From positions 6,756 to 70,755 of the forward strand of contig JAJRYY010000009.1 in NCBI GenBank assembly GCA_024275565.1: a stretch of 64,000 nt of DNA. The letters run 5' to 3'. Positions within the stretch are counted from its first letter, which is position 1, and each line of letters starts with the position of its first letter. A program made the position numbers and the translations under genes. Of the stretch, positions 2,881-64,000 are shown piece by piece. Source of the stretch: Planctomycetota bacterium. GTDB lineage: Bacteria > Planctomycetota > Phycisphaerae > UBA1845. The notes under the pieces are model-generated. The model ran no database searches, was not told the origin of the DNA, and worked only from the letters and a program-made list of their open reading frames with translations.

Positions 2881-2972
2881 CTATCGCAACCTTTCTACAG
2901 ACCCGCGAAATCCATCATTCCGCGAACCGGACTCCGTATTGTTCCATTTACCGCTGCTGTTCAGGCGAGATG

Positions 2973-3695
2973 CTAACCAGCGTCGACCAGCGTCCCAACC
3001 TCTTCACCCTGTGCAACTGCTCGCATGTTACCCGATTTTTTCAGATTGAAAACGATCACCGGAATACGATTCTGCTGACACATGACCATGGCAGACAGAT
3101 CCATCACCTGCAATCGGGCGTCGATCACCTGATCGTATCCTATGTGCTTGTGCAGAACTGCCTCCGGATCGGTCTCAGGGTCAGCCGTGTACACGCCATC
3201 AACCTTCGTCGCTTTCAACAGCACGTCCGCACCGATTTCCGACGCACGAAGCGCTGCACAACTATCCGTCGTCACGAACGGGTTGCCCGTACCAGCCGCA
3301 AAAATCACCACGCGACCTTTTTCCAGATGGCGGATCGCACGTCGTCGCACGAAGGGTTCGCACACGCGATCGATCGCAATCGCAGACTGAACACGCGTGG
3401 GAATTCCAAGCGATTCCAGAATCTCCTGAAGCGCCATCGCATTGATGACAGTGGCCAACATGCCCATATAATGGGCAGCCACCTCCTCGATTGCGATCCG
3501 CTTCGCAAGATCTCCGCCGCGAATGATGTTACCCCCGCCTATCACCAGACAAAGCTCAACACCCAGGTCCACAACGCCGCGTATTTCCTCGCCAATGCGA
3601 CGAAGCTCGTCGGCATCAATGCCATCTCCACCCGTGGCACAAAGACCTTCACCGCTGATTTTCAACACAATCCGCTTGTATTTCAGCTCAGCCAT
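2973..3695 (-). CDS. pyrH: uridylate (UMP) kinase
   Basis: 240 aa starting MAELKYKRIVLKISGEGL. Carries the amino-acid kinase fold motifs GGGNIIRG and AAGTGNPFVTTDS. The operon position is conserved. Confidence 0.9.
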   Translation of the reverse strand: MAELKYKRIVLKISGEGLCATGGDGIDADELRRIGEEIRGVVDLGVELCLVIGGGNIIRGGDLAKRIAIEEVAAHYMGMLATVINAMALQEILESLGIPTRVQSAIAIDRVCEPFVRRRAIRHLEKGRVVIFAAGTGNPFVTTDSCAALRASEIGADVLLKATKVDGVYTADPETDPEAVLHKHIGYDQVIDARLQVMDLSAMVMCQQNRIPVIVFNLKKSGNMRAVAQGEEVGTLVDAG

Positions 3696-17801: not shown

Positions 17802-18902
17802 TCAGCGGGGTCCTGTGTAGGCAGCACCGAATGACGCGAAATCTGAAAGGGTCGTCGCACCATCCCCGTCCGCATCGAACGGACGACAGTCTACCGATAC
17901 ATCGCCCCCCATGCACAACTGAAATATCGCAAAATCGCCGAAATCAATATCCCCGTCGTCATTCGCATCGCCATAAAGCGAAACGTCAGCCTGTTCCGCA
18001 ACATAGCCAGCCACCGACCGCAGCAGATCCTTCAGCATGTCGAAGTCAATGTAATCCGGGGAGACATCGATCGCGTCGTTTTGCGTATGGTAAAACCCGT
18101 TGCACAGATAACATCGCTCGATGACAACAAAAGCCGGTATCCCGACCGACTCGAACGACCAGTGATCCGAAAATGAAAAATTACCGAAATTCAAAAACGC
18201 CGACAGACCGTTTCCATAAGTGTCGATCGCCGTTGCGATACCATTTGCAGCAGCAGCGGACGCATTCTTGCTGTAAATATCCATCCCATAAGCACCGCTG
18301 TTATGCCCCACCATGTCAGTCGTCACAGCCAGCACGATATTCGCATCGGCGTGATCCGCAACAAACGCAACACTGCCCCGCTTGCCCTGCTCCTCACGAT
18401 CGAAGCAGACGAATTTGATCGTGCGCGCACTCCGCATCCCGGAAAACAACCGGGCCGTCTCCATAACCACAGCCGACCCCGATCCATTATCATCTGCTCC
18501 AGGATTGTTGGCCGAATCAAAATGTGCACCCACGACAATGATCTCGTCGGGATGCTCGTAGCCCGTCAGCGTCGCAACAACGTTGTGGTAGGTCGTCCCG
18601 TTATATTGGAAGGGGTCAAGCTCCGCATCGAAACCATACAGCATGAAATCCGCCAGAATATTGTCGCGGGCGAGGTCGTGCTCAGGACCAAATCCACGGT
18701 TGTCACCAAGGCGCGTATACAGCAGATCCTCCATGCAGTGTCGGTAATGACCAATATCGACCCGATCGGCAATCACTCCGGGAGGAGCTCCGGCATTGGC
18801 AGAAGTTGTGATGACCGAAAGAACGCAATGGGATGACACGATAAGAACTGAAAGACCCTGTCGATTACGGCCCTGTCGATTAATGCTCTGTCGAAAATTC
18901 AT
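17802..18902 (-). CDS. M28-family zinc aminopeptidase with C-terminal double Ca-loop module
   Basis: The M28 metal-binding block AHFDSANNPGADDNGSGSAVVMETARLFSG is present. A signal peptide starts at the internal Met (MNFRQ...). The C-terminus reads DANDDGDIDFGDFAIFQLCMGG...CRPFDADGDGATTLSDFASFGAAYTG. Confidence 0.75.
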   Translation of the reverse strand: MNFRQSINRQGRNRQGLSVLIVSSHCVLSVITTSANAGAPPGVIADRVDIGHYRHCMEDLLYTRLGDNRGFGPEHDLARDNILADFMLYGFDAELDPFQYNGTTYHNVVATLTGYEHPDEIIVVGAHFDSANNPGADDNGSGSAVVMETARLFSGMRSARTIKFVCFDREEQGKRGSVAFVADHADANIVLAVTTDMVGHNSGAYGMDIYSKNASAAAANGIATAIDTYGNGLSAFLNFGNFSFSDHWSFESVGIPAFVVIERCYLCNGFYHTQNDAIDVSPDYIDFDMLKDLLRSVAGYVAEQADVSLYGDANDDGDIDFGDFAIFQLCMGGDVSVDCRPFDADGDGATTLSDFASFGAAYTGPR

Positions 18903-19198
18903 GATATTGCTCGCACAGATGTACCTCGACCCGGCAGTTTTAGACTGCACTTTCAGGCTGCACCGGATCATTGATCCACACGTCCATGATACCACGCCTC
19001 CAACACCTCCTTCAAGCACAATCGGCCCGAAAATACGCCTTCCCCTGACTTAATCCAGATCGCGCCGATCCATCGGAATTTCGGTCGTTCCGCCCTGATG
19101 CTGATTGGGTCCGATCTTGTCCCATCGCGCTCTGAGACTGAAGCGGATTGACATTCGTAACCGGATGACCCATCCTTGATCCATGTAGCCAAGCCGCA

Positions 19199-19360
19199 GG
19201 GTGCCACTGGCGGCTTGCCCGCCAGTGCTTACGCAGGGTGCCGGGCCGTGTGGCCCACCTCTTCAGAGGTGGGGGAGCCGAAGATCAACCGAACATCCCC
19301 CAAGACCGCGTAAATCAATAGCAAAGCGCCGCGTGCCACTGGCGGCTTGTTCACCAGTGC
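19199..19360. repeat. cluster of REP-like palindromic elements (two copies of GGTGCCACTGGCGG-CTTGY-CCGCCAGTGC plus a second hairpin motif)
   Basis: Copy 1 at 19199-19229 is an inverted repeat CACTGGCGG/CCGCCAGTG. A second hairpin CACCTCTTCAGAGGTG-GGGGAGCCGAAGA lies at 19251-19295. A degenerate copy of the first element is at 19333-19360. Related copies occur at 27424-27462, 40485-40675 and 63840-63869. Confidence 0.6.
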
Positions 19361-19386
19361 TTTTCCAACAGCGAAGCATAAACACA

Positions 19387-20229
19387 TCACCCCCCAAACA
19401 CCCCCTGAAACCCCGCAAAATCAACAAGATCAACATCGCCATCACCATCCATATCCGCCCACCGACACCCCGGCCCAGCGTCGATACTGATCCCGCTGTT
19501 CCTGCTGCACTCTTCAAAGTACCGCCAGTCCCGAAGCCCAACCCCATCCGCACTATCGAAATCCCCACTGCCGTCCACAGCAATATCCCCATAACGAATG
19601 CAATCCCACCGGTTGAAGGCAGGCATTTGCCAAGACTTACCACGCCAAGTAATTCGGGGACCGTTGGATGGAAATGCGCCTTCAGCTATACCATTCGTAA
19701 CCAACTCTCCATCAATGTACCACCAGAAAAGATTGATCGGCCCGTTAACCAGTTCAAGACGATGAACATGCGGGACACCGGCCTCAAAATCAGCGAACAC
19801 AATTGGAAGCAGGTTGTCACGATTCAACTTTGCTCGATCGCGGGCGACAAAAAAAGTGTACCTGATCCCAAACGAGTTTCCGACAGCCATTGCGGTCGGA
19901 GCACCAGCTACAATTTCGGATGCATCTCCGTTCGCTTCGACCTTCCACTCCAGGAAAAAGGAAGGCCCCCCAACGAAATCGTCAAGTGTACGGCGATAAG
20001 AATCGTGTCCCCCTTGTTCTTTGCCAGGGCATTCAACCATATCAAGCTGCTGGATGTACTGTCCATCCTCAACCCAGAGAATGGGTACGCAAAATTGTTG
20101 CAACAACCCCCAACCCCCCGCAACAGGAAAGGAATCACATTCCCAGGTGAACACCTCCCCGCGCGCAATCGCCGCCGAAATCAGCACACATCCTGCCATC
20201 ACTGCCTTGCTTACCATTGCTCTCAACAT
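19387..20229 (-). CDS. secreted hypothetical protein with C-terminal Ca-loop module
   Basis: 280 aa with a signal peptide. It ends ...CRWADMDGDGDVDLVDFAGFQGVFGG. Confidence 0.5.
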   Translation of the reverse strand: MLRAMVSKAVMAGCVLISAAIARGEVFTWECDSFPVAGGWGLLQQFCVPILWVEDGQYIQQLDMVECPGKEQGGHDSYRRTLDDFVGGPSFFLEWKVEANGDASEIVAGAPTAMAVGNSFGIRYTFFVARDRAKLNRDNLLPIVFADFEAGVPHVHRLELVNGPINLFWWYIDGELVTNGIAEGAFPSNGPRITWRGKSWQMPAFNRWDCIRYGDIAVDGSGDFDSADGVGLRDWRYFEECSRNSGISIDAGPGCRWADMDGDGDVDLVDFAGFQGVFGG

Positions 20230-20779: not shown

Positions 20780-20870
20780 AAGTCATTATGATCGGTGACT
20801 ATGTTCGTATAAGTCATGTTCGCGCAAGTCATGTTCGCATAAGTCATATTCGTACAAGTCATGTTCGAAA
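20780..20870. repeat. 15-bp tandem direct repeats (AAGTCATGTTCGNNN x4 near-perfect, plus 2 degenerate copies) in the leader of the FG-GAP gene
   Basis: Read directly: aagtcatgttcgcgc / aagtcatgttcgcat / aagtcatattcgtac / aagtcatgttcgaaa. Confidence 0.7.
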
Positions 20871-20924
20871 AGTCAGGCACGGAGAAACCATGTCCGGGGA
20901 AGTCAATCCCCGGCAGACGGGCTT

Positions 20925-22670
20925 TTGAGTCAAAAAGTCAAGCGGCAAGGAGCGACGATGTCTTCAGTTTATCGGAATATGTACGTTTTTGTGTGTATGG
21001 TGTCGATGTTGAGCGGGGCGGGTTCCGCCATGGGGCAGCAGTTCGTTGAGAGTACGAATGCACGCCTGCCAGCCGCTTCCCCACTGGAATACTCCGAGCA
21101 GGTGGACATGGCCGACATCGATGGCGATGGCGATATGGACATGCTCTTCGCCAACGGCCGCGGGTTCAGCAGCCCACAACAGCAGCAGCGCAACCGCCTC
21201 TATATCAACGATGGCAACGGATTCTTCGTCGATGAAACGTCGCTGCGCTTACCGACCACCCTTCTGGGATACACGCGGGACGTCGAATTCGGCGATGTGG
21301 ACGGCGATGGCGATATGGACCTCCTCATCGTCAACACGTTCAACACGCAATCCTGGTTGTTGATCAACGACGGATCTGGCTTCTTCACCCACGACTCCGC
21401 CGCACTGCCGACCTCCAGTTTCAGCGGTTCAGACGGCGATTTCGGCGATGTGGACAACGATGGCGATCTGGACATCATCTTCACGAACTCCGGAACATCA
21501 GCCTTCGGAACCGGCATTGACAAGCTGTACATCAACGATGGAACGGGGTTGTTTTCGGACGAAACCGGTACGAGGCTTCCGGGCGTGGGCGTCGCGCAGA
21601 GCATTGATTGCGATTTTGCGGATATCGACGGCGACCTCGATCTGGACCTGATTATGGGACATCGCGACGGTCGATCTCAGCTTTGGCGAAACGACGGAGC
21701 CGGTTTCTATACCGACATCACCCTCAGCAACCTCCCCAACGATGGCAGCGGAACATATTCAGTGGACCCGGGCGATATCGATGGCGATGGCGATCTGGAC
21801 CTGATGGTCGTTCGCGGCAGTACGGATCGGGCATTCCGCAACGATGGTACGGGTGATTTTTTCAATGTGACTGCGGCTGTCCTGCCGAGCAACCCATTTC
21901 AGGATGACAACGACGGCGACTTTTTCGACCTCGATAACGATGGCGACCTCGACTACATCATCGCCCGCCTCGGCAGCGGTGGCGAGCGGGTGTATGTCAA
22001 CAACAACGGCGTCCTGCAACTGACCCCGGGCATGATTACAGTGATATCGGACTCAACGCTGGACGTGGAAATCGGCGACCTCAACAACGATGGTCGCCTG
22101 GATGTTGTGACCGCCCAGGGCGAATCCGGAAGCTTCAGAAACCGCATCTACATGAGCAGTGGCCCCATCGACACGCTCGCACCCGTGACAGCCCAACTGG
22201 ACGATCTAGCGGATACGGACGATTCGACTGGTCCCTATGTGGTGCGGGCAGCGATCCGCGACGGGATGACGGGCGATAACAATTTCCACGATCGCGGCAT
22301 CCAACTGCTTTACAGCGTTGGAAACGGATCGCCCCAGACCGTCCCGATGGTCTGGTCCGGCGGCGACCTCTATCGCGGCGAAATTCCAGGACTGGCCGCT
22401 GGTTCCATGGTCGCCTACTCCGTCATGGCCATGGACTGGGCTGGCAACCTTGGCATTTCCTCTGAGATGACATTCGCGGTCACGGGCGGAATCCTCGGCG
22501 ATGGCGACGGCGACGGCGATGTCGATTTGAGTGATCTGGGCAGCTATTTCGACTGCGTCGGCACCTCACTGGTGGGGGGCGACAGTTGTGCTTCGTTCGA
22601 TTTCGACGGCAACCAGAACGTGGATTTCGCCGATTTTGGATCCCTCCAGCAAGCCTTCACCGGCAGTTAG
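20925..22670 (+). CDS. secreted FG-GAP/VCBS-repeat beta-propeller protein with C-terminal Ca-loop module
   Basis: Seven repeats of the form DIDGDGDMDMLFAN / GDVDGDGDMDLLIVN / GDVDNDGDLDIIFTN and so on. The C-terminus reads GDGDGDGDVDLSDLGSYFDCVG...CASFDFDGNQNVDFADFGSLQQAFTGS. Confidence 0.75.
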   Translation: MSQKVKRQGATMSSVYRNMYVFVCMVSMLSGAGSAMGQQFVESTNARLPAASPLEYSEQVDMADIDGDGDMDMLFANGRGFSSPQQQQRNRLYINDGNGFFVDETSLRLPTTLLGYTRDVEFGDVDGDGDMDLLIVNTFNTQSWLLINDGSGFFTHDSAALPTSSFSGSDGDFGDVDNDGDLDIIFTNSGTSAFGTGIDKLYINDGTGLFSDETGTRLPGVGVAQSIDCDFADIDGDLDLDLIMGHRDGRSQLWRNDGAGFYTDITLSNLPNDGSGTYSVDPGDIDGDGDLDLMVVRGSTDRAFRNDGTGDFFNVTAAVLPSNPFQDDNDGDFFDLDNDGDLDYIIARLGSGGERVYVNNNGVLQLTPGMITVISDSTLDVEIGDLNNDGRLDVVTAQGESGSFRNRIYMSSGPIDTLAPVTAQLDDLADTDDSTGPYVVRAAIRDGMTGDNNFHDRGIQLLYSVGNGSPQTVPMVWSGGDLYRGEIPGLAAGSMVAYSVMAMDWAGNLGISSEMTFAVTGGILGDGDGDGDVDLSDLGSYFDCVGTSLVGGDSCASFDFDGNQNVDFADFGSLQQAFTGS

Positions 22671-27423: not shown

Positions 27424-27462
27424 GAGGGTGCCACTGACGAACTGTCCGCCGGTGGCACCCTT
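27424..27462. repeat. REP-family hairpin (GGGTGCCAC...GTGGCACCC), possible terminator for convergent genes
   Basis: A perfect 9-bp stem. It shares the GGGTGCCACTG core with the other REP copies. Confidence 0.4.
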
Positions 27463-27612: not shown

Positions 27613-29076
27613 TCAGGCAATCAATGAATACACTGTAATCGAGACAGCAGCGATCATAGCCGCCGCCGCAAGCCACGCGAGAATCCGACGAAAATCGTAT
27701 TCTACCCAGGTGAAAACCTGATCCAGTTTATCAAGTCCCGTAACGAGCGCCTCAGCCACCAGGAGCAATCCATTGCGGGCAGGCGACCAGATGCGATCGT
27801 AAAATGGAATACAGACACGTTCGCGAATCGGCAGCCAGGCATGCCTGAGGGCGATCGCACGCATTCTCGCCACATGGGTGCCAAACGAGATGGATGGATT
27901 GGATGACTTGGATGGATTGGATGACGAATCGCCTTTTGGCTTCCCGGGTGCTGTTTCAGTCTCTTTTGAAACGTCCGACGCCTCGGGGGGAGCGGGCGAA
28001 TCATCCGTAAAGTCCGGGATCGGATCAGTCTCTGAGACGAACCGTGCAGCCTCCAGATCTGTTAAATCAGGCTGCGGTGAATTCAAGGACTCCTTCGAGA
28101 TATCGCCCGTCTCTTCGACAAGATCGGACGGTCTCACTGCATTGTCAGGAACCACGGCCTCTGATTCAGCGACATCCGATTCAGCGACATCGAAGTCAGC
28201 AGACTCGGATTCAGCGACGTGAGATTCAGCAGCCTCGGATTCCGCAGCCTCGGATTCAGCAGCGTGGGCTTCAACGACATCATTGTCATTGAACGAACCC
28301 GGACGCGCCCCGCCATCAGAGATCACGTCATCGGTCGAGGCAGCGTTCTCTTCTGCGACCAGTGAACTTGCGGCGTCGATTTCCTCCGCAATCCCATAGT
28401 CAGTCTCATCTGTCATCTCAGCGATGAGGTCTTCGACGTGTACCAGTTCGGCTTCCAGTTGCTCGTGCGAGACGCGTTCAGGATGCTCGGAAGAGGGGAG
28501 ATCGGCGCTTCCAGATGCAGGCAGTTCGGAATATTCCCCGGTCGATCCGGGTGACAGGGGATCTGCCCCGTCGGATGCACCCGACGCCTCATCGTCGATC
28601 CCGGTTGCAGCCGGCTTGAGGATACCGACTTCCCGACCGAGTTCGTGGGACAGGTCGGTGGCTTCGTCCAGCACACGGTCAACCTCTGTTCCCACCAGCC
28701 CAGACGGGTCCAACCCGGTCGGATCAAACCCGGTCGGATCAAGCACAGACGGGTCAAGCCCAGTCGGATCAAGCCCGGTCGGATCAAACCCAGCCGAGTC
28801 CAGCCCAGCCGAGTCCAGCCCAGCCGAGTCCAGCCCGGTCGGGTCCAGTCCAGACGGGTCAAGCCCTGGCGGATTAGGGCTGACAGGATCAGGCGTCGGA
28901 AAATCAGGTGCAGACGAATCAGGCTCAGCCGGTTCATGCCCAGGCGTATTGGATCCAGCCGCTCCGGGTTCAGGCGGATCGGGTTCGGGTGGGCTGGGTT
29001 CGGTTTGTTCAGGGGGGTCGGGCATAGAAATCAGGTCTCGCGGTATCCGGAGTATCATCGGAGGATACTGCCGCAA
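27613..29076 (-). CDS. tail-anchored acidic repeat protein (hypothetical)
   Basis: 487 aa. About 13 tandem (P/S/T/A)GLD peptide repeats and AESE repeats are encoded by DNA-level tandem repeats (28680-28870). There is a single C-terminal TM helix and a conserved ~90-aa C-terminal region. Confidence 0.5.
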   Translation of the reverse strand: MRQYPPMILRIPRDLISMPDPPEQTEPSPPEPDPPEPGAAGSNTPGHEPAEPDSSAPDFPTPDPVSPNPPGLDPSGLDPTGLDSAGLDSAGLDSAGFDPTGLDPTGLDPSVLDPTGFDPTGLDPSGLVGTEVDRVLDEATDLSHELGREVGILKPAATGIDDEASGASDGADPLSPGSTGEYSELPASGSADLPSSEHPERVSHEQLEAELVHVEDLIAEMTDETDYGIAEEIDAASSLVAEENAASTDDVISDGGARPGSFNDNDVVEAHAAESEAAESEAAESHVAESESADFDVAESDVAESEAVVPDNAVRPSDLVEETGDISKESLNSPQPDLTDLEAARFVSETDPIPDFTDDSPAPPEASDVSKETETAPGKPKGDSSSNPSKSSNPSISFGTHVARMRAIALRHAWLPIRERVCIPFYDRIWSPARNGLLLVAEALVTGLDKLDQVFTWVEYDFRRILAWLAAAAMIAAVSITVYSLIA

Positions 29077-29143: not shown

Positions 29144-29878
29144 ATGCGCATCCCACGGGTACACCATCCAGAATTGCAGATCGCCAGGAATGACCGTCTC
29201 CAGTTGTCGCTGGCTGAGGCGCAGCACGTCCGTGCAGTATTACGCTGCGGCGTTGGGGACGCGGTCCGTGTGTTTGACGGTGACGGCGGGGTGGCCGACG
29301 GGCAGATCGCCGAAATCAGCCGGCGGGACGTCTTCGTAGAAGTTGGCCGCATAACAAAATGGGCGTTTCCGAGCGAACTGAAGGTGACGCTGGCGGTGGC
29401 TGCTCCGAAAGGGCCTCGGCAGAGTGTACTGGTCGAAAAATGCACAGAACTGGGCGTCTGGGGCATATGGCCGGTGGTCTTCGAGCGCAGCGTCGTGAAA
29501 CCGGGGTCGGGTGTGATCGAGAAATGGCGGCGGACTGCCATCGAATCCTGCAAGCAGTGCGGGCGTGACTGGACGCCGAGGATCGCTGAAACAGTGGATT
29601 TCGAGTCGGCTGCGTCGAAATTCGGTGAATTCTCGCAAGTATTTGTTGCACATAAGGATACTGCATTTTCAATGCTTTCAGAACTTTCTGCATCAGAAGA
29701 TGGGGTCCACGGCAACATTCTGGTCTGGATTGGTCCGGAGGGTGGGATGACCGATAACGAACTGGGGATGTTGCAGGAGGCTGGTGGCGTTGGCGTTCGG
29801 CTTGGGGCGCATGTTTTGCGCATCGAGACCGCTGCCATCGCAACTGCTTCGATTTTGTGTTCCGGGCGAGTAAAGTGA
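29144..29878 (+). CDS. rsmE: 16S rRNA (uracil1498-N3)-methyltransferase
   Basis: MRIPRVHHPELQ...LSLAEAQHVRAVLR is the typical RsmE N-terminal PUA-like start. A SPOUT C-terminal domain follows. Confidence 0.8.
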   Translation: MRIPRVHHPELQIARNDRLQLSLAEAQHVRAVLRCGVGDAVRVFDGDGGVADGQIAEISRRDVFVEVGRITKWAFPSELKVTLAVAAPKGPRQSVLVEKCTELGVWGIWPVVFERSVVKPGSGVIEKWRRTAIESCKQCGRDWTPRIAETVDFESAASKFGEFSQVFVAHKDTAFSMLSELSASEDGVHGNILVWIGPEGGMTDNELGMLQEAGGVGVRLGAHVLRIETAAIATASILCSGRVK

Positions 29879-29990: not shown

Positions 29991-30902
29991 ATGATGGCAT
30001 TTTTGCGGTTGATGCGTCCGGCGCAGTGGATCAAGAATCTGGCGGTGCTGGCTGGTCCTGCGTTTGCGATGCAGTTTGGCGAGGACGCGGTCTGGAACAC
30101 GCTGTTGATTTTTGTAGCGTTTTGTCTGATCTCGAGTGCAAGCTACGCGATCAATGATGTGATGGATCGTGAGGCTGACGCGTTGCATCCCAAGAAGAAG
30201 ACGCGTCCGATTGCGTGTGGGGATGTGTCGCCGGGGGCTGCGATCGTTCAGGCGATCCTGCTGGTGGTGGCTGGCGTGGGGTTGAGTGCGAAGATGCTGC
30301 CACTCGGATGTACGGTCATTCTGGTGGCGTATTTTGTGGTGATATTGTCTTACTCGCTGGCGTTGAAACGCCGGATGATTCTGGATGTGATTTTGATCGC
30401 GGTGGGGTTTGTGCTTCGGGCGACAGCCGGTGCGGAGGCGGTCGAGGTTGTGGTGTCGCCGTGGCTGATCGTTTGTACTTTTACGATTTGCTTGTTCATG
30501 GGGTTCGGTAAGCGGCGATGCGAGATTGCTCAGTTTGGGTCGCTGGAGGAAGCCAGCGAGCATCGGCTGACGTTGCTTCGGTATACGCCGGAGTTTTTGA
30601 ATCATCTGATCAGCGTGTCAGCCGGGATCGCGATCATGACGTTTTTGCTCTACACGATGGATCGCAACCCGGAGTATGCACCGCCGTTTCGGAAGGACCA
30701 TCTGCTGTACACGATGCCGCTGGTGGTCTATGGGGTGTTTCGGTTTGCCATGCTGGTGCAGAGCGGGAATCGCCAGGGGCCTATGGATATCATCGTGCGG
30801 GATAAGCCGTTTATCGGGACGATCGTGATCTGGGGCCTGCTGGCGGTTGCGATTATGACGGAGAAGTACTGGCTGGCAGCGGTCGGGTTCGGGGCTGGGT
30901 GA
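29991..30902 (+). CDS. UbiA-family prenyltransferase (decaprenyl-phosphate phosphoribosyltransferase-like)
   Basis: The NDVMDREAD aspartate-rich motif is present and the protein is multi-TM. The segment 30575-30690 is duplicated in degenerate form at 32767-32885. Confidence 0.7.
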   Translation: MMAFLRLMRPAQWIKNLAVLAGPAFAMQFGEDAVWNTLLIFVAFCLISSASYAINDVMDREADALHPKKKTRPIACGDVSPGAAIVQAILLVVAGVGLSAKMLPLGCTVILVAYFVVILSYSLALKRRMILDVILIAVGFVLRATAGAEAVEVVVSPWLIVCTFTICLFMGFGKRRCEIAQFGSLEEASEHRLTLLRYTPEFLNHLISVSAGIAIMTFLLYTMDRNPEYAPPFRKDHLLYTMPLVVYGVFRFAMLVQSGNRQGPMDIIVRDKPFIGTIVIWGLLAVAIMTEKYWLAAVGFGAG

Positions 30903-32766: not shown

Positions 32767-32885
32767 AGGTTACGGTATACGCCGGTGTTTTTGAATCATC
32801 TGATCAGCGTGTCAGCCGGGATCGCGCGATCATGACGTTTTTGCTCCACACGATGGATCGCAACCCTGAGTATGCCCCGCGACCT
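32767..32885 (+). repeat. degenerate ~115-bp duplicate of an internal 3' segment of the UbiA-family gene (30575-30690)
   Basis: cggtatacgccggtgtttttgaatcatctgatcagcgtgtcagccgggatcgcg...acgatggatcgcaaccctgagtatgcc matches the original with about 8 differences. Confidence 0.7.
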
Positions 32886-39025: not shown

Positions 39026-39095
39026 AAGAGGGGCGGGATTCGAACCCGCTACCGCACGGTTAAACCGTGTGCTCTTACCAGATGAGCTACCCAGG
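39026..39095 (-). tRNA. tRNA-like gene (possible tRNA pseudogene) with canonical D- and T-arms but non-pairing acceptor stem
   Basis: The reverse complement reads ...TAGCTCATCTGGTAAGAGC-A-CACGGTTTAACCGTGCG-GTA-GCGGGTTCGAATCCCGC-CCCTCTTG. The T-loop is TTCGAAT. The anticodon region contains TTTAA, giving either a UUA or UAA anticodon depending on how the loop is drawn. Confidence 0.45.
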
Positions 39096-39383: not shown

Positions 39384-40400
39384 TTACGCGATAGATATAA
39401 CGATGGCGCGACTGTCCTCACGTTCCGTTTCGATCTCAACGTCAAGAAACTTACCAATCAGATCAACATGCGTTTCAGAATGACGAGACAATCCCGTAGA
39501 CCGAAACGTTCCAGACCCCGCGATCGCCATCGGCAGCAACAACTGATCCGTCAGATACTCTCCAACCGGAGCAGATGACCGAAGATAACGCTGACACTGC
39601 TGAACCGCATGGGAAGCGACAGCCTCAGCAGCTCGACCAACCTCACCGAAACCCGTAAAAACTTCCGTCACGTTCTCATACCCAAGCTCGATCGTCACAA
39701 TATTTCCAGGACCCACAGGGCGATCGATCTCAACAACTTCCGCTTCACCCTCATCCCAACCGAGACGCTTCCGCATGACGCGAACTTCCCGATCAGCGAT
39801 CTTCCGATCAAGACTCGATACAACCGCCCGCCCACATCGCCGCACCAGATCGCCACGCTCCACAATGCTGATCCCACCGAAAGATTCAGCAGGTGTCACA
39901 TCCACAACCATACGTCCCCCACCCGCCGGATAGAACCCATACCTCTCAAGGGTCACCGATACCTTCGGACCCATCCGATTCACAAGCGGAAGGTACGACC
40001 GCTCAAGAAAGTCAAACGGAGGTGCATACGGATTATGCGTCCCGCCCTCAAGCACGATCCGACTCGGCGCTTTCGCAAGTGCAAGCGGAAGCAAAATCGT
40101 CTGCAGCACAAGCGTCGTACTACCCGCCGTCCCAATACTGAACGTATAATCACCACCCACAGCCACACCCGGAACAAACACCAGCTCGGTCGAACCCATC
40201 TCATCGCCCTCGACCTTACACCGCCCAATCTCAGCAGCAGCACGGACAGCCGTAAGGTGTTGTCGCAGCAGTCCGGGCTTCCTCCGCTTCGCACGAATAT
40301 TCTCAATTCGAAACGCCCTACCCGTAACGATCGACAGCGCAAGGGACGATCGCAATATCTGCCCCCCGCCTTCACAAAATGAACCATCAACCGTCAACAT
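39384..40400 (-). CDS. rtcA: RNA 3'-terminal phosphate cyclase
   Basis: MLTVDGSFCEGGGQILRSSLALSIVTGRAFRIENIRAKRRKPGL is the RtcA N-terminal signature. Confidence 0.85.
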   Translation of the reverse strand: MLTVDGSFCEGGGQILRSSLALSIVTGRAFRIENIRAKRRKPGLLRQHLTAVRAAAEIGRCKVEGDEMGSTELVFVPGVAVGGDYTFSIGTAGSTTLVLQTILLPLALAKAPSRIVLEGGTHNPYAPPFDFLERSYLPLVNRMGPKVSVTLERYGFYPAGGGRMVVDVTPAESFGGISIVERGDLVRRCGRAVVSSLDRKIADREVRVMRKRLGWDEGEAEVVEIDRPVGPGNIVTIELGYENVTEVFTGFGEVGRAAEAVASHAVQQCQRYLRSSAPVGEYLTDQLLLPMAIAGSGTFRSTGLSRHSETHVDLIGKFLDVEIETEREDSRAIVISIA

Positions 40401-40484
40401 CACAACAACCTCCTGGAAAGAACAATTCATCGACAGGGCGACCATGTCTTCCTAACAACAGGGCGCCCATATCTTCTTCAACAG

Positions 40485-40675
40485 TGTGGCCCATGTCTTC
40501 AGACATGGGGGAGCCGAAGACCACCCGCACAGCAACCCAAACTCTAGCCAAGCCTCAGGGTCCACTGTACGGACCACCATCACAACATAAAACGGGTCCC
40601 ACCGGCGACTCGTCCGCCAGCGTGCTTCATCACAGCATAAAACGGGTGCCACTGGCGGCTTGTCCGCCAGTGTCT
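40485..40675. repeat. REP-like element cluster in the rtcB-rtcA intergenic spacer
   Basis: Contains a CATGTCTTCAGACATG-GGGGAGCCGAAGA hairpin, a GGTCCACTGTACGGACC palindrome, and two copies of GGGT(G/C)CCAC(T/C)GGCG...CCGCCAG(T/C)G. Confidence 0.6.
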
Positions 40676-40730: not shown

Positions 40731-42242
40731 TCAATCATCCGCCGCAGAAGCATCCTTAATCACAAAACGCGCCTTCAACCGTGCAACCTCAGAAGCCAGC
40801 CCGGCAAGCTTCACAGAACGAAGCACCTCATCAAAATCCTTATAGACAGCCGGGGCTTCATCCATCGGATAATTCCGGCAATTCGTCATAATATCGCACG
40901 TCTCGAACGACGCATTGATCGACTTCTGATCCAGCGACCGGATCGCGGCTTTGCGACCCATCACGCGTCCGGCACCATGATTCACACTGTAACAACTAAT
41001 CTCCGCACCCTTATCCGCCACCATGACAGCCGACCCCCGCTGCGGATCACCCGGCAGCAAAATAGGATGCCCGCTCTTGGCAAACGGCGTATCCTTCAAC
41101 GCATAATGACCACCAGGAAACGCCCGGGTCGCACCCTTACGCATCACCCAGGAAGGTCGGTTATTCACAATCTCCTTCCGCGCAATATTATGACTGATGA
41201 GGTAAACCAGCTCACCAGACACACCCGGAATGACCTCCTGAAAAGCCTCCAGCACAAGCGCGTTAATCAGCAGATGATTCACAGTCGCAAAATTCGCTCC
41301 CATGGACATATCATCGATATAAGCATTCGCCTCAGGCGTCCCAAGCGGTGCATAACACAAATGCCTGTCATTCCCAGGATACTCTATACCCCACCGGTCA
41401 AACTTCCGCTGCAACGCCTGAAACTGTCCCATAGCAAGGTTGTGACCAAATCCACGCGATCCACAGTGCGAGAGAAACGCGACATGCTTATCCCGCAGCC
41501 CGAAGGTCTCAGCACAGTGCTTCGCCCGGCTGTCATCACCAACCTCCACCACCTCACACTCGCCAAAATGATTACCGCCACCATACGACCCAAGCTGCGT
41601 AACCTTCTCCCTGAACTTCGGAAACGCCCCGGAGTGCAGTAGCCAGTCGAGTCGAGCACCCAGCGCATCCCGGGTTTCATCGTGTCCCAGGTGGAAAGAG
41701 TCCTCACAACGCGTCGCCCACCGTGCAGGGACACCCATCGCCTCACAAACCCCCTGCGACGCACCTTCGATCGCAACGCGTCTCCCCAGCGGCTCGCCCA
41801 CATGCCTCGATTTTCGGACGCTGCGCTGGCCCCGCCCCGCTCCCGTAGGCGTCCGCTCACAAATCGCCTCAATCACCGCCCGCCGGGTACGACGATCCAG
41901 AACCTCATTTTCAGGCAAATCAAGCTGCAATAAGCTCATGGAACACTTGATATCCACGCCTACGGGACCGGGGTAGATGTGGGAGGCGGAGGCCATCACG
42001 CAGCCAATGGGGGCGCCATACCCGATATGGGCATCGGGGTTCAGTACCACTTCATCCACGCCGGGGGCGAGGCGGGCATTGACCACCTGCTGCAAAGTGG
42101 CGTCATCAAACGTATCAAGGATAGCCTCGGTCCCAATAACCGTTATTGGCTTCACCTTACCGTCAGCCACCGGCAAAATAGACGTTGCCGCACCCGTACT
42201 CACCAGTCTGTTCGTATGCTTCGCCATCAGAATACTCCTCAC
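40731..42242 (-). CDS. rtcB: RNA-splicing ligase RtcB
   Basis: 503 aa with the RtcB His/Cys metal-site motifs and the VNHGAGR block. Confidence 0.9.
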   Translation of the reverse strand: MRSILMAKHTNRLVSTGAATSILPVADGKVKPITVIGTEAILDTFDDATLQQVVNARLAPGVDEVVLNPDAHIGYGAPIGCVMASASHIYPGPVGVDIKCSMSLLQLDLPENEVLDRRTRRAVIEAICERTPTGAGRGQRSVRKSRHVGEPLGRRVAIEGASQGVCEAMGVPARWATRCEDSFHLGHDETRDALGARLDWLLHSGAFPKFREKVTQLGSYGGGNHFGECEVVEVGDDSRAKHCAETFGLRDKHVAFLSHCGSRGFGHNLAMGQFQALQRKFDRWGIEYPGNDRHLCYAPLGTPEANAYIDDMSMGANFATVNHLLINALVLEAFQEVIPGVSGELVYLISHNIARKEIVNNRPSWVMRKGATRAFPGGHYALKDTPFAKSGHPILLPGDPQRGSAVMVADKGAEISCYSVNHGAGRVMGRKAAIRSLDQKSINASFETCDIMTNCRNYPMDEAPAVYKDFDEVLRSVKLAGLASEVARLKARFVIKDASAADD

Positions 42243-42378: not shown

Positions 42379-43986
42379 ATGTTGAACGTCGCAATCGGAA
42401 TGCTGGGCATGATGCGGGATCGCGGGGATGGACCGGATCGGTGGTCGCAATGGCGCCCTACTGTGTCTTTGTGTCAGCACGAGGATCTGTTGATCAGCCG
42501 TCTCGAACTGCTCGTCGAGACAGGATCGATGGATCTGGCGAATCGGGTGGCAGCCGACGTTCGCTCGGTATCCCCCGAGACCGAAGTTCGCCTCCATATG
42601 ATCGAATTTGGCGATCCATGGGACTTCGAGAATGTCTACAGCGTCCTGCACGGGTTTGCCCTGGATTACCAGTTTGACACCGATCAGGAGCGGTATCTGA
42701 TTCATGTGACCACGGGTACCCATGTCGCTCAAATCTGCACCTACCTGCTGACGGAATCCCGGCATCTTCCCGGGCGGTTGATTCAGACGGCGCCTCCGAA
42801 GCGGCGTAGTTCTGGGCAGGCTGGCCGGTATACGATTATTGATCTGGATTTGTCGAAATACGATCGAATCGCGCAGCGTTTTGAAAGCGAGCAGCGCGAA
42901 GGATCTGAATTCCTGAAGGCTGGGATTCAGACGCGTAATGTTGCTTTTAATCGCATGATTGACGAGATCGAATATGTGGCGATCCACTCGCGGGCGCCGA
43001 TCCTGCTGACGGGTCCGACGGGGGCGGGGAAGTCGAGTCTCGCCCGTCGTATCTTTGATCTGCGGAAGTTGCGGAACAACGTTGCGGGTCGTTTTGTGGA
43101 GGTCAACTGTGCGACCTTGCGTGGTGACGGAGCGATGTCTGCTCTTTTTGGTCATACGCGTGGATCGTTCACGGGGGCTGCTCAGGATCGGGCTGGATTG
43201 CTGAAGGAAGCCCACCTTGGGATTCTGTTTCTTGATGAGGTTGGCGAGCTGGGTCTGGATGAACAGGCGATGCTCTTGCGGGCTGTCGAAGAGCATCGTT
43301 TTCTTCCGCTTGGATCGGACAAGGAGGTCAGCAGTGATTTTCAGCTGATCTGCGGTACGAATCGCGACCTCGGGGCTGATGTCCGGTCGGGTCGATTTCG
43401 CAACGATCTGTTGTCCCGGATCAACCTCTGGGCATTTGAACTGCCGGGGTTGGCGCAGCGGCGTGAGGATATTGAACCGAACGTTCATTTTTCTCTTGAG
43501 CAGGTCACGGTTGCGACGGGCCATCGTTTTCGGTTCAACAAGGAGGCATTGGATATGTTTCTGCGGTTTGCGGAATGTCCGGATACCCCCTGGACCGGGA
43601 ATTTTCGAGACCTCGACGCTGCCATAGCCCGGATGGCGACCTTGGCGCCGTCCGGGAGGATTACGGAGGAGGCGGTGGATCGTGAGATTGATCGCCTCAA
43701 GCGGTCGTGGCGTGATTCTGGAACGTCTGCTTCGGTCGATGGTACGCATGTTCTGGAAGCCCTGCTGGGAGACAGGCTGGACGACCTTGACGAATTCGAC
43801 AGGGTTCAACTCGAGCGTGTGGTGCTGGTCTGTATGGAGTCGCGGTCCTTGTCGGTGGCTGGCCGTCGTTTGTTCGCTGCCTCAAGGCGTAAGCGGAAGG
43901 CGCCGAACGATGCGGATCGCCTTCGGAAGTATTTGTCGCGGTATCGACTGGACTGGTCCATGGTGAAAGACGCTCTTCCCGGGTGA
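42379..43986 (+). CDS. rtcR: sigma-54-dependent transcriptional activator RtcR (CARF-AAA+-HTH)
   Basis: Walker A LLTGPTGAGKSSLARRIF and the GAFTGA-like region are present. There is an N-terminal CARF-like domain and a C-terminal HTH. Confidence 0.85.
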   Translation: MLNVAIGMLGMMRDRGDGPDRWSQWRPTVSLCQHEDLLISRLELLVETGSMDLANRVAADVRSVSPETEVRLHMIEFGDPWDFENVYSVLHGFALDYQFDTDQERYLIHVTTGTHVAQICTYLLTESRHLPGRLIQTAPPKRRSSGQAGRYTIIDLDLSKYDRIAQRFESEQREGSEFLKAGIQTRNVAFNRMIDEIEYVAIHSRAPILLTGPTGAGKSSLARRIFDLRKLRNNVAGRFVEVNCATLRGDGAMSALFGHTRGSFTGAAQDRAGLLKEAHLGILFLDEVGELGLDEQAMLLRAVEEHRFLPLGSDKEVSSDFQLICGTNRDLGADVRSGRFRNDLLSRINLWAFELPGLAQRREDIEPNVHFSLEQVTVATGHRFRFNKEALDMFLRFAECPDTPWTGNFRDLDAAIARMATLAPSGRITEEAVDREIDRLKRSWRDSGTSASVDGTHVLEALLGDRLDDLDEFDRVQLERVVLVCMESRSLSVAGRRLFAASRRKRKAPNDADRLRKYLSRYRLDWSMVKDALPG

Positions 43987-43989
43987 GTT

Positions 43990-44175
43990 GAGAAATGGTC
44001 CGTACAGTGGGCCCTGCGTCGCGGGACAGGAGATGGTCCGCACAGCGGACCCTGCATCACGGTGGTCCATGTGTCGTGGGATTCGTAATGGTCTGTACAG
44101 TGGACCCTGCGTCACGGTGGACCCTGCGTCACTTTGGAACGGCCACAGTCGGGGGCGGCTGTGCTACATATGCCC
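43990..44175. repeat. three tandem ~55-bp repeats each containing the hairpin palindrome GGTCCGTACAGTGGACC
   Basis: atggtccgtacagtgggccctgcgtc..., atggtccgcacagcggaccctgcatc... and atggtctgtacagtggaccctgcgtc... The same palindrome occurs once at 40566-40590. Confidence 0.6.
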
Positions 44176-62513: not shown

Positions 62514-62876
62514 ATAAGTCCCCGCCCTTGCGGTACACACAGAAAATGCCCGCTCGACCCGTAAGTCCTCACATCTCAACCCATAAGCATCGTCCATTCA
62601 GAGTCCGTTGTTTGGACGGAACTCGACTTGGGGTACTTATTCTGAATGGCGCATACCCTATCGGACCTGCTGGCAGGGTTATCGGTCACGACGGACATAA
62701 TGTGAACCATCAGACGACGTCAACCGATGGACTGACTAGCATCTTGGACACAATCGTTGAATGTCAAATCGACGATCAGCCACGTCGTTTTGCCCAACGC
62801 CGGATTCCTCGCTATACTGACACGACAAAGCGTCGCAAAGGGCGACGCATTCCTACCCAGGGAGCGTGTCACAATC

Positions 62877-63683
62877 ATGAACGTCTTACAAGGCAGCATG
62901 AACGTCTTACAAGGCAGGCAGGCCATGGTCTGCGGAAGCACGCAGGGTATCGGGCGAGCGTGCGCGATGGAAATCGCAAAACTCGGAGCATCCGTCACCC
63001 TCGTCGCCAGAAACGAAGCGACACTCCAGCAGGTCTGCGACGAACTACCCTCCGAGGAAGGACAGAATCACGCCATCCTATGTGCAGATTTCTCCGACAT
63101 CTCAAGCCTGACCGACAGTCTGCACGCCATGGTCACAGAACGCGGAACCTACCATGTACTCGTCAACAACACTGGCGGACCGACCAGCGGCCCCATCATT
63201 GAGGCTGACCTCGAAGCGTTCGCACAGGGGTTTTCTAACCACGTCCTCTGCAACCACACCCTGCTGAAAGCACTCCTGCCGGGCATGAAGGAAGAAGCCT
63301 TCGGACGCATCGTCAACATCATCTCAACCTCAGTCCTCATGCCGATCAAAGGGCTCGGCGTCTCCAACACGATCAGGGCTGCCGTGGCGAACTGGGCGAA
63401 GACAGTCGCAAGCGAGGTCGCATCCTTCGGAATCACCGTCAACAACGTACTCCCCGGATTCACCGATACCGCACGATTGACGCACCTCTTTGAAGCCAAG
63501 GCGAATCGTACCGGCCAGACCGTCGAACAGATCCGTGAGGCAGCCATCGCGATGATACCCGCCGGTCGATTGGCGCACCCTTCCGAAATAGCAGCCGTCG
63601 TAGGCTTCCTCACCTCCCCCGCCGCAAGCTACATCAGCGGCGTAAACATCCCGGTAGACGGAGCAAGAATGGCCGCCCAGTAA
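62877..63683 (+). CDS. short-chain dehydrogenase/reductase (SDR)
   Basis: The TGxxxGIG cofactor motif (CGSTQGIGRA) is present, along with the catalytic Tyr-Lys region. The start carries a 21-bp in-frame tandem duplication. Confidence 0.8.
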   Translation: MNVLQGSMNVLQGRQAMVCGSTQGIGRACAMEIAKLGASVTLVARNEATLQQVCDELPSEEGQNHAILCADFSDISSLTDSLHAMVTERGTYHVLVNNTGGPTSGPIIEADLEAFAQGFSNHVLCNHTLLKALLPGMKEEAFGRIVNIISTSVLMPIKGLGVSNTIRAAVANWAKTVASEVASFGITVNNVLPGFTDTARLTHLFEAKANRTGQTVEQIREAAIAMIPAGRLAHPSEIAAVVGFLTSPAASYISGVNIPVDGARMAAQ

Positions 63684-63839
63684 CACGCAGCCAGCCGCCC
63701 CAAAAATGTAGCCCAGCCGCCCCCGGCTGGGGAAGCATAGCGAGACACCAAACGTAGGGCAGGTCGTTCTTTCGTCTCAAGACGAAAGGTTGACCTGCCT
63801 CCACCATGTGCATCCGCCCGGTAACAAAGCCACAACACC

Positions 63840-63869
63840 GGGTGCCACTGGCGGCTTGCCCGCCAGTGC
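63840..63869. repeat. REP-family palindromic element copy
   Basis: ggtgccactggcggcttgcccgccagtgcc is identical to the copy at 19199-19229. Confidence 0.5.
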
Positions 63870-64000
63870 CATATGACTGCACAGGGATATGAAATGACAG
63901 GGGGAATGGACATGCCAACACCACAGGTTTACGCAGGGTCCGCTGTGAGTTTGGGAATTTTTTATCCGACTTCCTCCAAACCGTGTGGTCCACCTCTTCA

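Follow-up and report, generated by a model that had tools for sequence, protein, structure and literature searches.

The short palindromes scattered through this planctomycete DNA very probably belong to a REP family that is the non-autonomous partner of a single clade of REP-associated tyrosine transposases (RAYT/TnpAREP), enzymes of the HUH-Y1 type that act on single-stranded DNA. Of the copies in the window, by which we mean the whole 64-kb stretch that was analysed, three are intact, two are decaying and one is a collapsed doublet; they are distributed over four intergenic regions. These are given below with their scores under a covariance model, R1, that was built only from metagenomic copies flanking RAYT genes, of mixed stem types and unrelated to the window.

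19199..19229, plus strand: intact REP; head GGGTGC, stem CACTGGCGG/CCGCCAGTG, loop CTTGC; 54.0 bits, E 2e-10
19331..19361, plus strand: partly decayed REP in direct orientation, starting 132 nt past the first copy; repeat family D5; 30.5 bits, E 5e-5
27426..27460, no strand assigned: compact double-foot palindrome of 35 nt with two inverted GGGTGCCACYGRCGR arms; about 11 bits on either strand, E about 1
40594..40626, plus strand: badly decayed REP relic, GGGTCCCACCGGCGACTCGTCCGCCAGCG, in the rtcB-rtcA spacer; about 11 bits (11.2), E about 1
40644..40674, plus strand: intact REP; loop CTTGT, antisense to rtcB and rtcA, in their 285-nt spacer; 51.9 bits
63840..63870, plus strand: intact REP; sense, 157 nt downstream of a short-chain dehydrogenase gene (62757-63683, plus strand); 52.4 bits

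The first-pass annotation had reported REP-like palindromes with a 9-bp stem and a 5-nt loop, together with a variant sharing one arm at 27424-27462. All of these copies are present, and the variant was recovered as the 35-nt palindrome at 27426-27460. Every copy is intergenic, as had been stated, under our own codon-usage gene calls, by which 14% of the window is intergenic. Perfect 9-bp stems with the consensus GGGTGCCACTGGCGG-CTTGY-CCGCCAGTG occur at 19199, 40644 and 63840, each with the sequence GGGTGCCACTGGCGGCTTGYCCGCCAGTG. Over 30 nt the 19199 copy is matched exactly by the one at 63840, and the copy at 40644 departs from it only at the loop Y position. A search of the window for GGTGCCACTGGCGG with up to two mismatches returned seven matches versus 0.59 expected, a count that none of 100 shuffles reached. 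The 14-mer match at 29383 was rejected as chance because it lies inside a gene and lacks a hairpin. Under R1 the three intact copies all reach E about 1e-10, and neither R1 nor the pattern search detected further copies in the 64 kb. Folding energies are -17 to -20 kcal/mol for the intact copies and -26 to -27 kcal/mol (z about -5) for the 27426 palindrome.

The remaining copies document several states of decay. At 19331-19361 the head and 5′ arm are intact, and the 3′ arm reads TTCACCAGTG, with two mismatches that break two pairs; this copy and the first share an interval whose flanking genes, both on the minus strand, encode an M28 peptidase (17802-19019, Pfam) and a hypothetical protein (19387-20229). 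The relic at 40594-40626 is one unit of a 50-nt tandem duplication (40578-40623 and 40628-40673, 87% identical; family D16), and it is counted as a REP through this duplication rather than through its R1 score. At 27426-27460, inverted heads and arms (GGGTGCCACTGACGA ... CCGCCGGTGGCACCC) make up one long hairpin between convergent genes. Palindromes of the same architecture, with perfect arms, were found at three loci in other genomes (L028, L082 and L093). Flanks of the three intact copies contain no target duplication. No clean empty site was found, and there is no direct sign of REP movement.

The REP unit is 31 nt long and comprises an unpaired 5′ head, (GG)GTGC, a 9-bp stem starting with CAC, and a CTTGY loop. 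Its structure was tested on 112 distinct 31-mers near RAYT genes, picked by the exact GTGCCAC head alone, junk included. Pairing was observed in 86.5% of cells versus 76.2% in shuffled sets (0 of 500 shuffles reached this value), and 103 cells had changed on both sides versus 45 expected (0 of 500). Slid-partner controls paired in 28-42% of cells, mostly about 30%. The element is a conserved hairpin rather than a chance palindrome. The GTGC foot, invariant in this sample because the sequences were picked by it, is preceded by GG in about 83% of copies. In the RAYT-flanking copies the GTGCCAC head and the CTTGY loop are constant, and the stem varies via compensatory pairs. A conserved unpaired GTGC occupies the canonical foot position, yet it is not GT[AG]G; because the foot is GTGC, the family falls outside the classical definition by a GT[AG]G foot, which covers most described REP families (PMC6006769 and the text of PMC3733652). 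A reading of the repeat as a sigma-54 promoter (TGGCAC-N5-TTGC) was rejected by eye since the spacing does not fit.

The repeat extends far beyond the genome in which it was noticed. One genome per species (GTDB representatives) was scanned for the pattern GCCACTGGCGG-N5-CCGCCAGTG, with the loop and the 5′ flank left unspecified, and at least 118 stretches matched in at least 61 species-level assemblies, nearly all of them Planctomycetota and from both classes of the phylum. The family can thus no longer be called species-specific, as the first-pass annotation had it: these assemblies share the same 25-nt core, and the loop and head are alike although neither was specified, with nearly the same 29 bases throughout. 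Nearly all listed copies have CTTGY or CTCGY in the loop and GGGT, or something close to it, in the flank. Labels among the matches listed are nearly all Phycisphaerae/Phycisphaerales or Planctomycetaceae/Planctomycetales/Pirellulales, and cultured isolates are represented among them by strain ZRK34 and Maioricimonas sp. JC845. Individual assemblies contain up to eight separate stretches among the matches listed.

A few listed records carry labels from other phyla (Anaerolineales, Fimbriimonadaceae and Acidimicrobiia). One of them was tested, an ‘uncultured Anaerolineales’ MAG (L056; CAYVAM010000004.1, 2971-4905). Its Dxs gene ends 17 nt ahead of the repeat, and the encoded protein is 80% identical to Phycisphaerae and 56% to Anaerolineaceae homologues. 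The contig looks like Phycisphaerae, and either the bin or the label is probably wrong. Because the Anaerolineales label is doubtful, spread across phyla was dropped and only phylum-wide spread is claimed. As a by-product, the 29-mer offers a practical means of recognising planctomycete contigs in metagenome bins.

The link to a transposase came from a rough tblastn search with approximate Y1 transposase queries, which led to one locus (L098). There, a minus-strand gene at 3978-4613 matches the NCBIfam model ‘REP-associated tyrosine transposase’ with 84 bits (cut-off 80) as well as Pfam Y1_Tnp. A REP doublet lies upstream of this gene, and downstream lies a tandem array of 116-nt REPIN units, each combining a CACTGGCGG hairpin in forward orientation with an inverted one of type CACTGGCTG. 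Relatives of the protein number 3199 at E up to 1e-10, some of them already annotated as REP-associated tyrosine transposases (Symmachiella dynata, Thermoguttaceae). Across an alignment of 22 homologues, the HUH motif (PEHVHLL) and the catalytic tyrosine (YIHxNPV) are invariant. In the PDB, the sole sequence match of the RAYT profile is E. coli TnpAREP (4ER8, E 1e-8). The motif set EHVH, WQ and YIHxNP, in a protein of about 195 aa, has no exact row in Table 1 of PMC6006769.

The flanks of this gene were then surveyed at 80 metagenomic loci encoding the RAYT clade. The counts were as follows.

Head plus hairpin up to 400 nt upstream, same strand as the gene: 66 of 73 loci
Head plus hairpin up to 400 nt downstream, strand opposite to the gene: 66 of 74 loci
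Head plus hairpin on both sides: 58 of 67 loci
Identical stem on both sides: 58 of 65 loci
Wrong orientation: 9 loci upstream, 7 downstream
Density of head plus hairpin: 3.26 per kb near the RAYT gene, 0.15 per kb beyond 600 nt
Upstream stem CACTGCTGG: 39 of 66
Upstream stem CACTGGCGG, the type found in the window: 14 of 66
Upstream stems CACTGGCTG and CACTGGCAG: 3 of 66 each
Upstream stem CACTGGTGG: 2 of 66
Upstream stems CACGGGCGG and CACGGGCTG: 1 of 66 each

Each of the upstream stem variants has its matching 3′ arm. Sharing a stem type goes with somewhat greater similarity of the RAYTs (62% identity versus 57% for the others; 0 of 1000 permutations), and the nearest-neighbour RAYT shares the stem type in 47 of 68 cases. 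The association is also seen in individual genomes. For example, Phycisphaera sp. RI_382 encodes a RAYT (L204) with the repeat just upstream and again 20 nt downstream, and it carries a dispersed doublet (L069) on a different contig. Copies also accompany a marine RAYT (L202, L203) with the same sequence as the Symmachiella dynata protein, at 22 nt on its upstream side and at 10 nt on its downstream side. These results support the earlier designation of the repeats as a REP-like family and tie that family to one RAYT clade.

By tblastn, the 64-kb window contains no RAYT gene. The matches that did appear there are the REP itself in translation (..CHWRLARQC..), which resembles the mis-called N-termini of two RAYT proteins (P0050 and P0112); a repeat that is translated in such N-termini must lie very close to those genes. 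Because the window encodes no RAYT, we infer that its copies would be mobilised by a RAYT acting in trans.

Placement relative to genes was assessed on copies from other genomes. No protein family recurs beside the repeat across the 118 listed loci, the best family being found at nine. The repeat is therefore a dispersed one, not a signal attached to one gene, and the idea of a cis-regulatory element of one gene family was rejected. Outside called genes lie 111 of 150 copies (74%), versus 17.7% of bases that are non-coding (P about 2e-51); the gene caller was a crude pooled one, and the other 39 copies, about a quarter, overlap its ORFs. With genes on both sides of 74 copies, 25 and 22 are co-directional in the two orientations, 20 lie between convergent and 7 between divergent genes. 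The excess of convergent over divergent contexts and the near-equality of 25 and 22 indicate that the repeat favours the 3′ sides of genes without strand preference. Co-oriented copies lie a median of 40 nt from the stop codon.

Such placement is what would be expected if the repeats were RNA elements selected by the host, terminators or 3′ stabilisers of mRNA that are kept for their function and to which a transposase is irrelevant. The stems are stable, copies accumulate downstream of genes and close to stop codons, convergent contexts outnumber divergent ones, and the plus strand beyond the 27426 palindrome reads TTTCTTT. For the standard copies the earlier ‘terminator’ suggestion is not supported, and only the 27426 palindrome is followed by such a T-rich stretch. 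The 3′ flanks of the intact copies read CTTACG, TCTATA and CCATAT, none of them a T-run, and a terminator scan called no REP copy, the effective loop of the 27426 palindrome being too long for that scan. Lacking T-tracts, the standard copies are not classical terminators. Moreover, the two orientations to the upstream gene are about equally frequent, and with an asymmetric head and loop the two strands would not serve one RNA function. Rfam has no match to the element: across the window a tRNA is the sole result at gathering thresholds, and even at E up to 10 nothing overlaps the repeat. Identical 30-mers at unrelated loci and the tight association with RAYT genes would also be left unexplained, and we regard a host-selected RNA element as improbable.

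Miniature derivatives of IS200/IS605 elements, resembling PATEs or MITEs and moved by a classical IS200 TnpA instead of a RAYT, are a very improbable source of the repeats. The ends of IS200/IS605 elements too have subterminal hairpins (PMC6006769), and one locus (L019) encodes an IS200-type TnpA at 2958-3515 on the minus strand (NCBIfam transpos_IS200, 62.6 bits; Pfam Y1_Tnp, 81 bits) whose stop codon lies 316 nt from a REP copy at 2618-2642. This is, however, one locus among the 118 listed. Systematic, oriented flanking belongs to the RAYT clade, whose class-2 Y---NP motif differs from the Y---Q of IS200 (PMC6006769). No tnpB-like partner recurs beside the repeat, and the repeat, one 31-nt unit, has no separate left and right ends. 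The earlier label ‘MITE-like’ holds loosely, in that the element is non-autonomous; it fails in that terminal inverted repeats and target duplications are lacking and the associated enzyme is of the Y1 HUH type. If the repeats were sites bound by a conserved protein such as a regulator or a nucleoid protein, acting on DNA or RNA and with transposition irrelevant, a head and loop conserved in distant genomes would be accounted for, as expected of a protein-recognition site. This reading is hardly credible given that no particular gene family is associated, that copies sit at gene 3′ ends and not in promoter regions, that decay and local tandem arrays, both seen here, typify selfish repeats, and that the only systematically adjacent protein is the RAYT.

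The arrangement of neighbouring copies fits the REP/RAYT reading. Among 72 close pairs at the 118 listed loci, 57 are inverted with heads outward, 8 are inverted with heads inward and 7 are tandem. The head-outward pairs have spacers of mostly 20-50 nt, and their two stems are often different variants; this is the REPIN or BIME arrangement. Copies in the window are singletons or direct pairs without a spaced head-outward doublet, and only the 27426 palindrome is of the doublet type. Regular arrays were seen in one Phycisphaeraceae MAG. At one of its loci (L048, 7583-7870) REPs follow each other head to tail with a 36-nt period and a TCCCCCCCCGT spacer, and at the other (L098, 3364-3953) the REPIN array with a 116-nt period adjoins the RAYT gene. 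Both arrays are broken by runs of N, which indicates that assemblies collapse there. CRISPR-like arrays were considered and rejected, as the spacing is irregular in general and the regular arrays have constant spacers.

The likely mechanism can be modelled on the E. coli and Pseudomonas systems, in which the folded single strand is bound by the RAYT, which recognises the unpaired head at the foot of the hairpin, and cuts and rejoins nearby (PMC6006769; PMC3116915). When the DNA becomes single-stranded, the planctomycete repeat would form its hairpin, and a RAYT encoded elsewhere in the genome would recognise the hairpin together with the head. Cutting and rejoining alongside would then copy or move single REPs and head-outward inverted doublets (REPINs), which would come to rest in intergenic DNA, mostly downstream of genes. 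Biochemical evidence that a RAYT cleaves and rejoins its single-stranded repeat exists for E. coli TnpAREP only (cited in PMC6006769). The same activity may be attributed to the planctomycete clade on the grounds of homology, the invariant HUH motif and tyrosine, and the match to 4ER8. Transcribed copies, such as the one between rtcB and rtcA, may incidentally be stable RNA hairpins, although this is speculation.

The closest precedent is the E. coli REP/BIME system with its transposase TnpAREP (YafM; 4ER8), the ‘REPtron’. Both families consist of short imperfect palindromes with an unpaired 5′ foot motif, both are dispersed between genes and also occur inside operons, both mix stem variants in paired copies (Y and Z in E. 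coli), and in both a Y1 HUH gene is flanked by inverted copies (PMC6006769). They differ in the foot, which is GTGC (in full GGGTGC) in planctomycetes and GTAG in E. coli, and in the hairpin, which has a clean 9-bp stem and a fixed 5-nt CTTGY loop here in contrast to the long bulged stem of E. coli. The enzymes are distantly related (E 1e-8), with EHVH in the planctomycete proteins and DHLH in E. coli, and the host phylum here is Planctomycetota. The REPIN-RAYT system of Pseudomonas fluorescens (Bertels and Rainey 2011, PMC3116915) is likewise similar: inverted doublets with short spacers are the commonest form, as they are here, singletons and decayed copies coexist with them, and the RAYT gene is flanked by its own repeat. 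Unlike that system, the window has no spaced doublet, only a collapsed one.

A third comparison is offered by the GTAG-tagged REP super-family (Di Nocera et al. 2013, PMC3733652), the following being drawn from its text. Both groups combine a tag with a stem (6-13 bp in the super-family) and a short loop, both comprise sub-families related by compensatory stem changes and favour head-outward dimers, and both prefer co-directional and convergent gene pairs. The super-family includes families in Rhodopirellula baltica. Its tag variants in that text are GYAG, GYRG, GTRG, GTMG and GTGG, a set from which GTGC is absent. Neither ‘GTGCC’ nor ‘GGCAC’ occurs in the text, and its Figure 1, which possibly holds a related R. 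baltica family, lay outside the comparison. A GTGCCAC-type head is likewise absent from the text of PMC6006769. As far as the text of PMC3733652 goes, the published surveys give GTAG variants and a few atypical classes (PMC3733652; PMC6006769).

Double-foot REPs have been described for TnpAY1 subclass 2.4 (Quentin et al. 2018, PMC6006769). The 27426-27460 palindrome and its three counterparts in other genomes similarly carry the head and its reverse complement at opposite ends. In contrast to subclass 2.4, this is a minority form here, in a family whose members mostly have a single foot. Such a form would result if an inverted dimer lost its central part.

The conservation of the repeat poses a puzzle. 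Its sequence is essentially identical across Phycisphaerae and Planctomycetia, and RAYTs flanked by the CACTGGCGG type average 57% mutual identity (range 48-100%). We tentatively raise the possibility, to which we give somewhat less than even weight, that the REP has stayed near-unchanged in both classes (29 of 29 positions bar two loop pyrimidines) while its RAYTs have drifted to about 57% identity, 48% at the extreme. If so, either unusually strong recognition constraints hold the repeat population over very long times, or RAYT-REP systems move horizontally among distant planctomycetes, far beyond the ‘vertically inherited’ picture from Pseudomonas and enterobacteria. REPIN-RAYT systems are reported to pass mostly vertically within lineages (10.1101/2022.05.22.493013, abstract); here, by comparison, one sequence is common to both classes of a phylum. 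A repeat far better conserved than its RAYT bears on the choice between vertical inheritance and transfer. GTGC together with the CTTGY loop would, in addition, be a new recognition code for this enzyme family.

For the annotation of the window itself these results have little consequence, as the copies would be selfish or domesticated repeats and not regulators of their neighbour genes. For the REP/RAYT field, they add a clean and large family that appears undescribed in the searched literature, where the repeat sequence itself was matched by nothing but unrelated primers and oligonucleotides; NCBI models already give the RAYT genes that name. With its non-canonical foot, fixed loop and natural compensatory stems, the family is a data set for asking what a RAYT reads in a hairpin.

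One pair of copies lies in a setting of its own. Pfam matches identify RtcA at 39384-40445 (minus strand), RtcB at 40731-42242 (minus strand) and RtcR at 42379-43986. The copies at 40594 and 40644 had been placed at an operon boundary; they sit between rtcB and rtcA, and thus inside a likely operon rather than at its edge. The closest named relatives of the RtcB are Phycisphaerae, which makes a member of that class the probable source of the window. In three related rtc loci (L199, L200 and L201; RtcB 80-83% identical), an extra ORF of 264-431 aa, in one case a DUF5677 protein, stands between rtcB and rtcA. The window lacks this gene and has the repeat-filled spacer instead. No REP was found in 26.6 kb around the three relatives' rtc loci; because they carry the extra gene, the lack of a REP there is only weak evidence for a gain in the window. 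A tRNA gene (39030-39092, minus strand; Rfam 40.6 bits) lies just downstream of rtcA.

Several other repeats were observed in the window. A second hairpin repeat, GTGTGGCCCA[CC/TG]TCTTCAGA[GG/CA]TGGGGGAGCCGAAGA, occupies REP-bearing intergenic regions at 19246-19285, 40482-40520 and 63981-64000, the last of which runs off the end of the window. Compensatory stem changes distinguish the two full copies, and on the minus strand both resemble the first hairpin of Rfam Acido-Lenti-1, at about 20 bits versus a gathering threshold of 37. The full motif is absent from about 200 loci in other genomes, where its 14-nt core has two matches. A third repeat, (T)ACGCAGGGTCC-ACTGTAC-GGACC, is found at 40556-40576 (plus strand) and at 43996-44016, 44089-44109 and neighbouring positions (minus strand), with four or five consecutive copies between rtcR and the gene that follows. 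The prefix of this repeat, ACGCAGGGT, is found again ahead of the hairpins next to REPs at 19229 and 63929. Among the loci from other genomes, the full 20 nt is absent and the shorter prefix motif has one match. Finally, a ATGTAGCCCAGCCGCCCCCGGCTGGGG hairpin with a canonical GTAG foot lies at 63706-63732 (plus strand) and 44143-44169 (minus strand), so the genome may also carry a classical GTAG-type REP family.

Tandem repeats and a duplicated segment complete these observations. A non-coding array at 2093-2241 repeats an 18-nt unit, GAAGTRCAATCCGACTGA, about eight times just after a gene ending at 2116, and another at 20801-20904 repeats a 15-nt unit, ATGTTCGCRCAAGTC, about six times upstream of a gene starting at 20925. 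Inside the gene at 27613-29076 (minus strand), a 487-aa ORF without a Pfam match, runs of a 15-nt repeat at 28144-28293 and 28650-28936 imply repeated pentapeptides. The segment 30579-30684, in the 3′ part of the gene at 29991-30902, recurs 2.2 kb downstream at 32773-32880 (110 nt, 95-98% identity), in what looks like a partial gene duplicate.
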